64,000 nt of DNA from Candidatus Omnitrophota bacterium (GCA_043742785.1 JAYTXU010000002.1:9707-73706); one strand, 5' to 3'; counted from the first letter of the stretch, positions 30,701-36,700 are shown. Translations and numbers: made by a program. The notes: generated from the sequence alone by a model not told the origin.

Positions 30701-33700
30701 TGAGTTTTGATTTCTTCTTCCGCATAATTAGAAACTTTTTGATCTTCACTGCTTTTTGCACCATAAATACCAACATCCTTGCTATTGACTAGTGGTTTAG
30801 TTACATCCACGTACGTACGTGTTTGCCCTAATGGATCAAAACGTCCTGTGGAGCTTCCTTGTTGGCCTACCGCATGTTTTAACTCGTGAGGTAAAGACGA
30901 CGTTTCCTCGTTACGATCATTCGTTAATGCTCCCCATAACGATTTAAACCCAATATCATACCCCTCTGCCATTTGACCGGGATTACCCATACGCTCCATC
31001 ATTGGATAGAAGGTCATTTCCCCTTTTCTATAGTCATTTGTAAATCCAATCACATTCATAAATGATTTAATTTCAGGAGTATTAGTAATTAAAACCTGCC
31101 CTAAATTACCAAACTTCTCTGATGTAGTTCTTACTGCATTAAACATTAAATCTTTATTGCCAGATGTTCTTTGTTCCACTTCTGCTAAAAATGCATTTGC
31201 TTTTTCATAGGCCTGAGGATTAGTTTCTTTTAAGCTCTTATCAATCTTCACGTTAATTCCTCCCTGAATCAGTCCTGATCCAAAGGTGGACACCCGAACC
31301 CCTATTAATCCTGCAGCCTGCTTGGATATTTCTGCAAAGAATTTCTCCCTTTGTTCGCGAAAACTATTAGAAACTGCTATCCTTAATCCCTCTCCAAAAC
31401 CTTCCCTTGGATTATTCACACGACTAGTTTTTATAGCCTTTCCTAAAATCTGCTGAGCCATCTGATTTACATCTTCAATCAATAAGCTTGCTTCCTTTTC
31501 AAGGCTCTTGGTCTTATCCGTGGAGTCACTAAAGGTTTCAAAAAACTTAGCTTTTAATCTATTGAACTTTTCTGGAACTTTAAATTCACCAGAATCCTTT
31601 AATTTTTTAAAGCTATCTTGAACTGCCCATGTTTCGTAACCGTGAAGTTTGACATAACCTTGTTTTGTCCAAAAACTAAAGAGTTCTTCTGCTGCTTCTT
31701 TACCAAAATCTTTCTCAATTAAAGCTGAGATGCTTCCTTTACGCAAAAGCCCTTCTTTGACCAAGAATGCATTCTTTTGAAAGGCGCTGGCCCATACAGG
31801 TAAAACAAAACTGGCCTTGCTGGAATTGGGCCATCTAAAGAAAGTAGCTACAGGGGTGATCGTATTGCCCTTCATATAAACATTCCCTGAGATAGGATCT
31901 AGTTGATGAATAGAAGGATTATATAAAGAGGAATTAATCTCCGCCCTATTTAAAGGAACGATGCCTGATTGATAATCATAGTATGCGTACGGCTGCTGTT
32001 CTCCCTTTGTCTTGTCTTGACTGTACAACAATCCTGTTTCATAAACAAAAGTTTCCCCTGGAGAAAGGATCGCTCTTCCAATTTCAACCGTATTATTGGT
32101 TGCTGTAATACTAACCGGCTTTGTGCTTTTTACGGAATCTCCATCATATTTAACTTCATAAGTCTGATACCCATTGTTTGCTGGTAATGGGATATTCACG
32201 CTATTGATAGCTGCTGCTCCCGGTGCTTGACGAACAACATAATCAGTAATCAATTGTTTATTGACCATATCTCCGTATTGTTGGGTAAGTCTACCTACCT
32301 GTTCATCAATAGCCCCTTGGGTGAGATTCTCTTTAGCAACTTCAGCTACTGTCACAAGACCTTGGCTAGCTTTTTGTTGTCCCATCTCTTTAAATATGTT
32401 CTCTACTGTAAAGCGTAAATAATTCTCAGCTGTCTTAGTCCCTGCATCTTCCCCCATCCCTTTAGCATTCTGATATAACTCATTAGCTTCAATAAGTCGG
32501 ATTCTTTGACCATCCGTTAAGTTCTGATCATACTTGTGTAAATATAAAGCCGCTTCCGCAATAATACGAGTATTGTCCCCTTTGAAAGAATTCATGCGAG
32601 CAAGTGTCTGTGTAATATCCGACGTTGAATCAAACGCAGAGCTACCGATAACACCTTTAAGTCCTGGTATTTTCTTAGCTTCCATGGAGTATCCTGAAAC
32701 AATGTCCGTCAGGTAAACATGTTTTGTGGATTCCCCAGCCCCAATGCTTGTTACAGATTTCTCAAAACTTGGCCCTATCGATTCTCCTACTTCATTGTGA
32801 ATAACAAATCCCTTTACAGATCCCTCTGTCTTAATACGTTCATTTAATATTGTTTCGACTCTTTCTCTTAAATCAGCTGAATTAATCCTAACACTGAATA
32901 TCTTCGCCTCTGTCCCATCCTTACTGTTTTGAGAGTCCTTCATGGCCTGATAAATCTGATTAGCCAAAGACTCTGCTCTATTTGAATTGACGGTATCCAC
33001 AGAAAAATCTTTTATTTGAATATTCTTTAATGTCACTTCCGGATTAAATTGAGCATAGTCAAAGCCTAAGGCAACTAACGGAGCTTTAATTTGGTCAGCG
33101 GTACCCGTTGTCAAAATAGATCCTTTAGTAAGCATGATTAGCTCAACACCGCGAGCACTGTGTTCTGAATCATGAACAGCTTGTTGAACATACGATTCCA
33201 CTCCAACTAGTTCTTGTCCCCCCTTTAATTGCGCCTCTGCATTTAACGCTGCGGCAACAGTTCTAGATTTAGGATTAAAGTGTTCCCCCGAAGAGTCACC
33301 ATAAATTTGATCCTTCTGTTCCGTTCCACGAAAAGAGTCAAGAGGAGTGTACTCGGCAAAACCATTCTTAATCTCCATCTTTGCCTTACTTTCAAAACGA
33401 TGCTTCAAATACCAAGCTCCTTCTTCCAACAACATTTTTTCTTGGCTTGATGTAAAAACATTGCCCTGCTCTCCATTGATCTGCTGATATATTCTCTTGA
33501 TTTCTAACAACGGATTTAATTCTTGCCCATAAACAACATCGGGAATATATCTTCCATTACTGTCAAGCACAAATTGCCCCTTACCATTTACCTTAAACTT
33601 CATAGCATTTCGACCATCAGCATCCGTAGCCGTCTCTCTAATCTCCCACTGTTGAGCTAAGTCCTGGTTGCCCTCTGTTTGGCTCTTAACTATGGAAAAT

Positions 33701-36700
33701 GCGGGATTTTCAAATCTATTAGACACTTCTAAGATGGCTTTCATCAAATTTGTATGAGAAATAAGTTGTTTCTCAAAATGAGATTTTAATTCAGGTCTCT
33801 CTTCGAGAAATTTAATAACAGCTTCGCGGGATGTTCCCTCAATCTTAGGATCAGAAGTTATTAGTTCATGCGCTTCATCAGCAATAAGAATATAGTCTTT
33901 CAAAGGATTAAAAGACTTCCCACTACGTTTATATTGCAAAACAAAATCTTTAGCTTGAAAGTCGTTGACTACAAGGATATTTCCTTTTTTCTCAAATTCT
34001 GCTAATCGATCAACTTCAATATTTCCATTAGAATCCATCATATCTCTTGCGCTGACAAACCCTGTTAATTCCAATCCTCTGTCAGCTTTTGAAGCTGTTG
34101 CACGTTTAATAACTTGATCCACCAAGGTCGATGTCGGATCTAAACCAACATACAAAAGAACTTTCTTCCCCTTCTTAGCTAATGCATCGGCAACCACGAT
34201 ATCCATCCATGTTTTTCCTTCCGAAACAGGCGCAATAAAGGCAAGTTTTCCATCGTTCATACCCGCCTGAATCATGCTATAGATAGCAGCCATCTTTTTA
34301 GGATCACTCCAATCCTTAGCTGCACGACTTTCCAATAAAGGTTTGGCCGCTTCAATAGTCATTGCCATAATTTCATCAGTTGGACCTGTTTGTCTCCAAT
34401 CAATACCTCTATTCTCGAGAACCTTTCTTGCTCTTTCTACGTAATCTGCATAGCCCTCTTTAGCAAATTTACCCTCTGCTCTAGCAACTTTCTTTACATC
34501 TCCATATTTGTAATACTCTAAAACTTCTTGTCCCTTTGGCAAGTATTCTGTAATCGACTGCTGAATAATATCATTTTGTTCTTTAAGAAATTTCGCTGCA
34601 GATCCATTGATCTCAAGACTTTTTGTATTAACAAATTTATCGCCGTTATACCAAGCGCTTGCACGTTTAACTGGGTTGACAATATTTTCCTCTGTAAGCG
34701 CCTTGAAACTAAACAGATCTGCAGCAGCTAAAAGCCTTGCTGCCTTGGTTAAAACAGGGCTTTTATCTTCGCCCTCTCCATAAAACTTGGTTCCTTTAAG
34801 ATAATCAGATGCGCGCGAAAGCCAAGATTTCTCTCCTTTTCCTTCTGAGGAACCCCCTACATCTTCACCTGACTTAGGTTGCAATGTTCCCTGTGTTGCT
34901 AATCTATTTCTGGCTCCTGCTAACATAGCCAAATCCGCTGGTTTTTCACCAGCTGCCAAACGTTCTGCCATTTCAGTTGTTAAAGATTTATACAATTTAG
35001 CATCAGACGGAGTCATTAAAACAGTTGCATCATTTGCTTTTAGTCCTTCGGTATAAGTAATCCTCACAGGAACAGTTTTTAATTCTTGCGCACGTTTTAA
35101 GAAAACGTCCGTAACTTCTACATTTTGTTCATCATTTGTTAATGAATGAAAATCTCTTCCGTTACTACGTTGCTCAGAAATAGCAGCATCTCTAGCTACT
35201 TCCAATTCTTGCGGACTCATCGTATCTCTAACAACTTCTGCTATTTTGATTTTTTGAACATGAGGATCTAGTTGCTCAAAATCATTCCCTGATTCGCTCT
35301 TATATCGTTCTGCTGCCAACGAACGAACTTCGCCTTTAACCTTTTCAAAAGTAGAAACTGATGTTTCTGTTTTAGAAGGAGCGGCTTCTCCCTTTACTTC
35401 CGCGGGTGGCTTAGCTGTTATTTTGTGTTGTAGAAAAGCATCTGTAACTAAAATATTTTGTTCTGCGTAGCCTAAAGAATCAAAGCCGGTTGTTCTTTTT
35501 GAAGCAAATTCTTTAGCAGCAACATATTCTCCATCCGTCATCGTATCGCGAACAGTTTCCGCTGCTATAGTTCTTTGTTCGACATGGCCTAGATCTTCAA
35601 AACTCTTTCCTGGATTTTGTTGTTCATATCTCTCCTTGGCCAATCCTCGCGCACTTTCATCGATCAGTGTTATATTTTTTATTTTTGCTTCTTCTGTTCC
35701 ACCCTTCTCACCACGCGCTGCTTGTTCCATCTGTTTTTCTTGAGCTGTCTTTTCAACAGGTCTTCTTAAACTCGATGGTGCAGGTTTTAAGAATAAGCTA
35801 TAAAAAGCAGCATCCGATGCTATTTGCTTCACTTGATTATTAACATAATTTCGAGCAGCGCTTTGAGCGCGTTCCCCTGTCAATCCACCAACCCTAGCTT
35901 CTGTTAATCCTTCCGATGATAGACGATCTATTAATCCTTTTTGATTATGTAAATAATTTTCTGTAAGATTGCTAACCAAGGTTAGCTGACCTATTGTTGT
36001 TAGGGTACTTGTTGAACTCGCCAAAGAACTCCAAACAAAATTCTCACTCTTAATTAATCCATTTACCAAGCTGTATCCTGTTTCTCCTCCAACTGCTGCT
36101 CCCGTTACAGCTCCCACATCCGTTGCAAATGTTTTTATAGCAGGCAATTCATTTCTTGTTAACGCGCTTTCTTTGAGTTGGAAAATTGGCATCAAAGCAC
36201 CTAATTTAAGACCCATCTGAGCACCAGAAACAAGATTTTGGACCAACATCCCCTCGCGACCAAAAAGAGGAGTCTCCTCTTGAATCTTCTTTCCATGATC
36301 TTGCTCATCGTAAACAGGTTTCCCATCCACACCAATCACATCTCTCATAGGTCTAAAAGACGAGTGGTATGCTCCATTCCAATCCCATTTACCCGTACCA
36401 TCTGTTATTCTATTAATTACTGCGCGAATAGGCGGATCGAGCATTCCCCATGCCGGCATAACAGCAGCAAAATCCATCGCTCCCGTTACGGATAATCGTG
36501 CGATCATAGACGGATTCTTTGCAAATACAGCTAAACTTACATCTGGTAGAACGGCTGCGCCTCCTGGATTATTCACATAAAGCCATGCATTTTTAAATCC
36601 TCCATCAGCAAAAGCCTTCATTGGTGCTTTCATAGCACCATTTAAACCCATAAGCCCACCAGCTATGGCTCCATATAATGCATGATTTACTCGTTCTTCA

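Follow-up and report, generated by a model that had tools for sequence, protein, structure and literature searches.

Which kind of motor, if any, is built into the giant proteins of Omnitrophota? The question is raised by a 64,000-nucleotide stretch of DNA from a Candidatus Omnitrophota bacterium (GCA_043742785.1 JAYTXU010000002.1:9707-73706), here called the window, in which one very long open reading frame (ORF) carries two ATPase-like modules. The production, membrane placement and use of giant bacterial proteins are poorly understood, and the literature attributes a possible role in self-export to SecA-like domains. An earlier note on this DNA had labelled both modules SecA-type. Our analysis favours a different reading, namely that they are independent, extremely divergent P-loop nucleoside triphosphatases (NTPases) of superfamily 2 (SF2; DExH/DEAD/ResIII-type), to which we give a probability of about 0.6. 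Membership of the SecA family cannot be demonstrated for them by sequence, and they are distinct from the "SecA_DEAD" domains, detectable by Pfam, that have been described in giant proteins.

Motifs and profile matches of the two modules

A single stop-free frame on the minus strand runs from nucleotide (nt) 46974 to nt 1, where it leaves the window; it comprises at least 15,658 codons, with its first ATG at nt 46971 and its 3' end beyond the window. Amino acid (aa) p of the encoded protein corresponds to nt 46974-3(p-1), and the module at the higher coordinates, module 1, is the N-terminal one. All features of the giant ORF described below lie on this strand. The gene may extend many more kb, since the window's neighbouring genes are found in NCBI on a contig of 101,972 bp.

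Module 1 (aa 4225-4830, nt 32485..34302) and the probable module 2 (aa 7690-8300, nt 22075..23907) each contain a Walker A motif (motif I) followed by a Walker B motif (motif II) of the DExH type. As read directly from the sequence, these are APVSEGKT (aa 4248-4255, nt 34210-34233) and YILIADEAH (aa 4361-4369, nt 33868-33894) in module 1, and AATGSGKT (aa 7713-7720, nt 23815-23838) and AVVDEIH (aa 7866-7872, nt 23359-23379) in module 2. The two Walker A motifs lie 10,395 nt (3,465 aa) apart in the same frame, which bears out the earlier note's placement of both modules in one protein about 10 kb from each other; the motifs it had quoted (SEGKT, DEAH and TTGTA; ATGSGKT, DEIH, TATPG and GRNRLG) are likewise all present on the minus strand. 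In the whole giant protein, the pattern [AG]x4GK[ST] is matched exactly twice, and so is hhhDExH, with a distance from Walker A to DExH of 115 aa in module 1 (LIADEAH) and 153 aa in module 2 (AVVDEIH), both within the 100-160 aa or so characteristic of SF2 helicase-like proteins. Shuffling the giant protein 2,000 times gave an expectation of 0.035 for hhhDExH, and none of the 2,000 shuffles contained a correctly spaced pair. The motifs and their spacing are thus far beyond chance.

Profile searches extended these matches beyond the motifs themselves. The N-terminal lobe of module 1 (aa 4225-4400, 176 aa) matched Pfam DEAD at 29.1 bits (E 1e-6, cut-off 26) and ResIII at 28.8 bits (cut-off 22.5), both from motif I to motif II, and both scores stayed above the cut-offs when a 750-aa piece was searched (26.4 and 26.0 bits, respectively). 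The N-terminal lobe of module 2 (aa 7690-7900) reached 22.5 bits with DEAD (E 1.1e-4), at profile positions 4-130, again covering motifs I-II. When the whole protein was scanned with Pfam at E up to 0.1, DEAD-type matches were found at the two modules only, and these were the sole P-loop helicase-like matches in 15,658 aa. Other collections gave weaker results. The best PDB match of module 1 was the helicase domain of reverse gyrase (E 0.018), a weak match limited to the Walker A/Ia region, and the weak NCBIfam match to TIGR01054 (reverse gyrase) covered Walker A and Ia only. PADLOC and PHROGs returned weak helicase matches only (DinG, PbeA and a phage DNA helicase), and a PDB sequence search with module 2 returned noise. 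We regard a P-loop SF2 fold as highly probable for module 1 and, with clearly less confidence, as probable for module 2.

Relatives and the putative second lobe

An exhaustive phmmer search with module 1 against 1.84 billion representative proteins returned two real relatives only. The only sizeable homologue, P0001 (MBF0595135.1; 4,542 aa, partial; E 9e-21), is annotated as coming from a Candidatus Omnitrophica metagenome-assembled genome, and the other, P0002 (487 aa), is encoded on an ENA metagenome contig. A third candidate, P0003, was rejected as a spurious repeat protein, and the ORFs downstream of P0002 on its contig, considered as a possible second lobe of module 1, gave no match. Scans of genome, metagenome and viral contigs with module 1, an alignment (A1) that includes P0001 and P0002, and module 2 detected no homologue. 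Word-indexed protein searches with the same three queries found none either; they also missed P0001 and P0002, which were present there, and so carry little weight.

Module 1 and P0001 are about 28% identical according to the alignment tool, or 23% identical when counted per module-1 position with gaps included. The best-conserved 11-residue windows cover DEAH..SDP, the AAIYxM ahead of Walker A, LTDxVxGxS, the helix of the IV-like element, Ia, STGT and Walker A, and DEAHELITSDP (aa 4366-4376) is the most conserved segment of all. Conservation therefore peaks on the motifs, as would be expected of an ATPase site under selection. P0001 also has a second Walker A motif, GAGKST, at aa 3159, which follows the module-1-like domain at a distance of about 2,100 aa, in a layout that mirrors that of the giant protein; this P-loop was not supported as a homologue of module 2 (z 0.25).

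Between the two modules themselves, BLASTP found no match, a Smith-Waterman alignment scored against shuffles gave z = -0.4, and a hidden Markov model (HMM) of the module-1 family failed to detect module 2. The earlier note was thus right that they share little sequence and do not stem from a recent duplication. We rejected recent or detectable paralogy, at least in the sense that none can be detected, and also a larger duplicated unit around each module, as comparison of the giant ORF with itself by BLASTP gave no match at E < 1e-3; the protein is essentially non-repetitive. Apart from the canonical motifs, the modules have just one element in common, F[DT]Yx[QR]FNP, about 15-20 aa past motif III; nothing else hints at a distant paralogy between them.

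The remaining anatomy, namely the two-lobe fold and motifs IV-VI, was assigned from sequence patterns, and its elements are given here as candidates. In module 1, candidate motifs Ia (KVLLYVGLDPTSTLVDQV, aa 4271-4288) and Ib (NILVVNDFQ, aa 4332-4340) lie between motifs I and II. Motif II is followed by an insert (about aa 4380-4615, nt 33130..33837) that is conserved in P0001 and P0002, then by a candidate motif III, LTTGTA (aa 4621-4626, nt 33097-33114), with FDYAQFNP after it, and then by a IV-like KIFSV leading into a helix (aa 4691-4695), a V-like YLTDIVSGYS (aa 4754-4763) and a VI-like QTLARMNS (aa 4789-4796), the last two lying within nt 32587..32715 and being conserved in P0001. Module 2 would follow the same plan, with an insert (about aa 7885-8070, nt 22765..23322) that matches no family, a candidate motif III, FTATPG (aa 8075-8080, nt 22735-22752), a V-like IIATLPFASQGKNF (aa 8222-8235, within nt 22183..22311) and a VI-like QALGRNRLG (aa 8256-8264, nt 22183-22209). 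The distance from motif II to motif III, 256 aa in module 1 and 207 aa in module 2, is anomalous for SF2, and the spacing from motif III to the pattern-level candidates V and VI is in both modules as in SF2 proteins. Neither insert has a Pfam match, in the case of module 1 at E up to 10.

Several results weigh against the SF2 reading. The DEAD score of module 2 lies under the Pfam gathering score, and this module has no homologue in any collection searched. In neither module is the putative second lobe matched by any profile, Helicase_C, P-loop_SecA and Helicase_C_2 included, PDB sequence searches with both C-terminal halves gave noise only, and motif VI of module 1 keeps a single arginine. 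Searched against the PDB, the module-1 family profile matched only P-loop neighbours such as ArsA/ParA, and there are weak matches to CbiA, so that a non-SF2 P-loop class is conceivable. Single-sequence AlphaFold2 models reached a mean predicted local distance difference test (pLDDT) score of 39.2 for module 1 and 36.8 for module 2, which makes them unusable for fold assignment, and a Foldseek search of the PDB with these low-scoring models (pLDDT 39 and 37) gave no match at E <= 0.001.

Some of these results could also be read as signs of decay. One or both modules might be degenerate or non-catalytic P-loop remnants, or module 2 might belong to another P-loop class, with a structural or nucleotide-sensing role. 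The missing profile match to a second lobe, the arginine lost from motif VI of module 1, the absence of a homologue of module 2 and the weak Pfam matches to CbiA, AAA_31 and nSTAND3 would all agree with such a history, as would the exceedingly long branches reported for the ATPase domains of giant proteins, which are suggestive of rapid evolution (West-Roberts et al., 2023; bioRxiv 10.1101/2023.11.21.568195). However, both modules have canonical Walker A and DExH motifs and an intact hydrophobic strand; the catalytic motifs of module 1 are its most conserved parts relative to a homologue of only 28% identity, which argues for selection; and the DEAD/ResIII matches extend from motif I to motif II, beyond the P-loop alone. 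We therefore consider it very improbable that the modules are such remnants. A part as a degenerate or regulatory switch, more broadly taken, is somewhat easier to imagine and still unlikely, and the chances that the modules are catalytically active appear to us to be even.

Tests for SecA membership

If the modules were SecA motors, they would be divergent descendants of the NBD1-PPXD-NBD2 arrangement, which push a polypeptide, either a partner or the giant protein itself, into or through the membrane, and they would have drifted beyond the reach of profiles. Several observations would favour this. SecA_DEAD domains together with SecA preprotein-binding domains, without scaffold or wing, were described on most giant proteins (West-Roberts et al., 2023), in agreement with the earlier note, and a PF07517 architecture group is listed in a recent preprint (Nielsen and Lui, 2026). 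In the present protein, both modules have an insert of 200-250 aa exactly where SecA has its PPXD, between motifs II and III, motif III of module 1 reads TGTAD as in the GMTGTAD of SecA, and the giant gene adjoins a cluster resembling Tad and type II secretion systems (T2SS).

Direct tests did not support this relationship. The Pfam models SecA_DEAD, SecA_PP_bind, P-loop_SecA and SecA_SW gave no match to the whole protein or to eight sub-pieces at E up to 10, the NCBIfam SecA models matched neither module, and the helical scaffold/wing domain (PF07516) was found nowhere in aa 1-15,658. Among the profiles that the earlier note had named, DEAD was thus found as described above (in module 2 below its cut-off), and SecA_DEAD and Helicase_C were not. 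We then used an HMM of the SecA motor built from 17 diverse SecA/SecA2 motor domains, comprising E. coli SecA and plasmid-borne homologues of 25-65% identity. With all filters of hmmsearch turned off, it scored -1.2 bits for module 1 and 4.0 bits for module 2. When the module-1 family, or module 2, was aligned to the SecA alignment with hhalign, the P-loop only was aligned, at a probability of 5%. Sub-optimal hhalign matches to SecA were collinear, covering motifs I, II and V-VI in module 1 and motifs I and III in module 2, each at 5% or less; this collinearity could be counted in favour of SecA ancestry, and it is what any SF2 protein would be expected to give. Within the inserts, neither a PF01043 match nor an hhalign match to PPXD was obtained. 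Likenesses to PPXD noticed by eye (FVLDSNGR with IVDEHTGR and, in P0002, DKKTGETKNWGD with DEHTGRTMQGRRWSD) were treated as chance, because their spacing to motif III is wrong and the HMM, hhalign and block tests all missed them.

In the block-chain test, twelve automatically chosen conserved blocks of 15 residues were placed in their best collinear order and scored against 300 shuffles. The conserved blocks that mark SecA are, in order, the GEGKT context, VNDYLA, DEVDSILIDEARTPL, RRWSDGLHQAVEAKE, GMTGTA, NMAGRGTDI and RGRSGRQGD. Module 1 reached z = 0.9 and module 2 z = 1.85, which equals the level of three control segments of the same giant protein (-0.7 to 1.4), whereas RhlE, a DEAD-box helicase of E. 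coli, reached 6.5 and a held-out SecA-like domain of 25% identity reached 17.9. The latter belongs to a 2,948-aa "hypothetical protein" (WP_135842960.1; coding sequence 453-9296) on the 13.8-kb Legionella geestiana plasmid NZ_CP041715.1, and is itself an instance of a SecA-type domain recruited into a large protein outside Omnitrophota. This positive control was also recognised by Pfam, with 90.8 bits for SecA_DEAD and 38.8 bits for P-loop_SecA. Divergent SecA-like domains embedded in larger proteins are thus within reach of these tests, and by sequence modules 1 and 2 are no such domains. The SecA domains published for giant proteins are moreover Pfam-detectable, while modules 1 and 2 are not, and SecA shares the position of its insert, between motifs II and III, with XPD/DinG, where the Arch domain is found.

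Descent from SecA thus appears unlikely to us, and the label "SecA-type" given in the earlier note is not supported. From its statement that both modules keep the motif order of the SecA/SF2 motor, the SF2 part is supported by the ordered motifs, the DEAD/ResIII scores of module 1 and the DEAD match of module 2, and the SecA part found no support in the tests.

Comparison with XPD and DinG helicases

XPD/DinG helicases carry the Arch domain, an insert of about 200 aa, between motifs II and III, and the position of the insert cannot discriminate a SecA-like from an XPD-like architecture. The modules could accordingly be nucleic-acid helicases or translocases of the XPD/DinG-like or the ResIII/DExH type, with an Arch-like insert, acting on DNA or RNA. 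DEAD and ResIII are their best profile matches, both modules show weak matches to the type IV DinG of PADLOC, the DEIHNF of module 2 resembles the DEAHN box of XPD/DinG, and the distance from motif II to motif III in XPD is likewise about 200 aa. Against a DinG profile made from nine sequences, hhalign gave probabilities of 32-50% for module 1 at motif II and 37% for module 2 at motif I, compared with 5% for SecA, and module 2 reached z = 3.3 in a DinG block chain.

A closer look reduced the value of these likenesses. The z of 3.3 came from Walker A alone, and module 1 reached only 0.9 in the same test. The DinG HMM scored 8.3 bits for module 1 and 6.0 bits for module 2, which is the generic level of SF2, as the same model gave 10.7 bits for RhlE and 6.0 bits for SecA. 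Neither module has a Pfam match to DEAD_2 or Helicase_C_2, and the Pfam scan of the giant protein revealed no nucleic-acid-binding domain nearby. As read from the sequence, there is no cysteine between Walker A and DExH in either module, and hence neither can contain an iron-sulphur (Fe-S) domain there; the Fe-S cluster is absent from some DinG proteins as well. We consider an origin of this kind to be about as unlikely as one from SecA, if not slightly more so. Assignment of either module to a known SF2 subfamily is not possible, and we file both as new, unclassified members of the superfamily, almost without relatives.

Topology and proposed mechanism

In a Kyte-Doolittle scan, the giant protein has hydrophobic segments at aa 107-125 and 432-450 and about 15 more from aa 9082 onwards, or about 15-20 overall. 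None was found in aa 451-9081, a membrane-free stretch of about 8,600 aa that contains both modules and has otherwise one weak Pfam match only, far below its cut-off. Both modules lie on the same side of the membrane, because no hydrophobic segment separates aa 450 from aa 9082. This side would be the cytoplasm if both N-terminal segments span the membrane, as a crude method suggests from these two segments together with the radical-SAM and carbamoyltransferase domains in the same chain. As to the topology, which the earlier note had proposed to check, the scan thus places both modules in a common compartment, and the cytoplasmic side is the probable one; its description of the host as a giant protein rich in membrane segments agrees with the several segments predicted here and with the architecture published for Omnitrophota giant proteins.

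An alternative start codon, Met98 (ATG at nt 46683), stands immediately ahead of a signal-anchor-like hydrophobic stretch, MPFVSNFKQWIKSVAIIILLVFIP (aa 98-121, nt 46612-46683), and may be the true start of the giant ORF in place of the ATG at nt 46971. Its placement is that of the start of a signal anchor. A cytoplasmic location of the modules would fit the use of ATP and the cytoplasmic-type enzymes further along the chain.

Under the SF2 reading, each module would consist of a first lobe with motifs I, Ia, Ib and II, an inserted domain of 200-250 aa, and then motif III with a second lobe carrying the IV-, V- and VI-like elements. ATP would be held between the two RecA-like lobes by the Walker A lysine and threonine, the aspartate and glutamate of DExH and the arginine of motif VI, and its hydrolysis would open and close the lobes. 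The inserted domain might serve as a substrate clamp, the role of PPXD in SecA and of the Arch domain in XPD/DinG, so that on the cytoplasmic side the module would hold on to a linear polymer or travel along it. For this whole proposal, a two-lobe SF2 NTPase whose clamp-like insert couples ATP hydrolysis to the gripping or movement of a polymer, the estimate of about 0.6 given at the outset holds; its second lobe, activity, insert function and substrate are predicted from the features described above. As for the substrate, a nucleic acid is conceivable but doubtful, and a polypeptide handled in a SecA-like manner is distinctly less likely than that.

A bolder extension would be that the modules are founders of unrecognised SF2 lineages confined to the giant proteins of Omnitrophota, with a clamp that either diverged from PPXD or arose by convergence, and that they act as built-in cytoplasmic motors which thread or pass on a polymer to the membrane part and to the adjacent Tad/T2SS-like machine, the polymer being the giant polypeptide, a partner protein or a glycan carrier. 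We regard this as improbable.

If active, the modules would be the only recognisable energy-consuming motors in the 8,600-aa stretch. Each comprises about 600 aa, is expressible alone and offers a natural entry point for biochemistry. At least one giant protein thus has two SF2-like ATPase modules that no sequence test for SecA recognised, and "SecA-like" should not be assumed from DEAD motifs alone. The near-orphan status of the modules, with two relatives among 1.84 billion representative proteins, illustrates the extent of sequence drift in giant genes. To a specialist, SF2 modules in a giant protein will be unsurprising, and the result corrects an easy mislabel: what is specific to this case is that two such modules are not recognised by any sequence test for SecA, fit no recognisable SF2 subfamily and are nearly without relatives, while the wider phenomenon has already been published.

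Other domains and gene neighbourhood

Towards its N-terminus, the giant ORF encodes a Peptidase_C39 domain (aa 298-374, nt 45853-46083; Pfam 35.7 bits) between the two N-terminal hydrophobic segments. It would face outward if both segments are membrane-spanning, unlike the C39 domains of ATP-binding cassette exporters. Far downstream, enzyme domains are fused in frame (aa 13558-15163, nt 1486-6303). As identified by Pfam, these are DUF192 (aa 13558-13662, nt 5989-6303), the N- and C-terminal parts of a carbamoyltransferase (aa 14300-14898, nt 2281-4077; 144.6 and 166.1 bits) and a radical SAM/4Fe-4S domain (from aa 15066, nt 1779 downward). An internal repeat of about 75 aa occupies aa 13827-13899 (nt 5278-5496) and aa 14133-14211 (nt 4342-4578), with a Smith-Waterman score of 181; it contains the hydrophobic segment ILGLTI[VA]QWGW[IV]GLGVLA, and its second copy lies just ahead of the carbamoyltransferase domain.

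Upstream of the giant gene, a Tad/T2SS-like cluster is present at nt 58238-60004 of the window (minus strand) and in locus L001. It contains two T2SSF-like genes, a 718-aa ATPase in which ParA/CbiA is fused to T2SSE, a free-standing DUF192 gene and several small ORFs, together with a weak match to a class III (archaeal-type) signal pilin. DUF192 thus occurs in two contexts here, as a separate upstream gene and as a domain within the giant protein. A 1,185-aa ORF of the same cluster (nt 60429-63986, minus strand) has no Pfam match at all. Between the secretion cluster and the giant gene lies a block of sugar- or metabolite-modifying genes (nt 49846-58210, minus strand), which encode a C-methyltransferase, an AAA_14/DUF4143 ATPase, a GT2 glycosyltransferase, a DegT/EryC1 aminotransferase and two tandem B12-binding radical SAM enzymes.

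Comparison with known systems

With generic SF2 proteins (PF00270 and PF04851, for example the helicase-like domain of reverse gyrase), the modules share Walker A, Ia, Ib and DExH in the same order and at the same spacing; for module 1 the score exceeds the gathering threshold, and the candidate motifs III, V and VI stand at SF2-like distances. They differ in the 200-250 aa insert between motifs II and III, in the lack of a Helicase_C match, and in that two of them sit within one protein of more than 15,000 aa. The SecA motor (PF07517, PF01043 and PF21090) resembles them in the size and position of the insert, in the proposed two-lobe SF2 layout and, in the case of module 1, in a TGTA motif III; in contrast to it, the modules show no similarity beyond the P-loop, no scaffold or wing, and no PPXD signal in the insert. 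XPD/DinG proteins (Rad3-type) resemble them in the DEAH(N)-type motif II and the large insert, with hhalign results slightly better than for SecA, but the modules lack DEAD_2/Helicase_C_2 matches and Fe-S cysteines and score at the generic SF2 level. WP_135842960.1 of Legionella geestiana is comparable, being a very large protein with a helicase-type motor inside, and unlike the modules this motor is clearly SecA-type, with 25% identity to E. coli SecA, 90.8 bits and z = 17.9.

The closest setting is that of the giant proteins described in metagenomes. Omnitrophota giant genes were reported to encode C39 near the N-terminus and many membrane segments and to have T2SS-like neighbours, and in proteins of the Dockerin type ("as seen in Archaeovorins") the SecA-related domains were reported to follow the C-terminal membrane anchors (West-Roberts et al., 2023). 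Giant proteins have also been described as "membrane-anchored, mostly cytoplasmic" (Nielsen and Lui, 2026), which the cytoplasmic location of the modules would fit as well. The published SecA_DEAD domains are recognised by Pfam SecA models. Modules 1 and 2 escape these models and precede the membrane cluster in the chain; the part of the giant gene beyond the window may yet encode a true SecA_DEAD domain. The host itself has the features reported for the giant proteins of Omnitrophota (West-Roberts et al., 2023), with C39 near a signal anchor, membrane segments, enzyme domains including radical SAM, and a T2SS-like neighbourhood, and so is a protein of the same kind.

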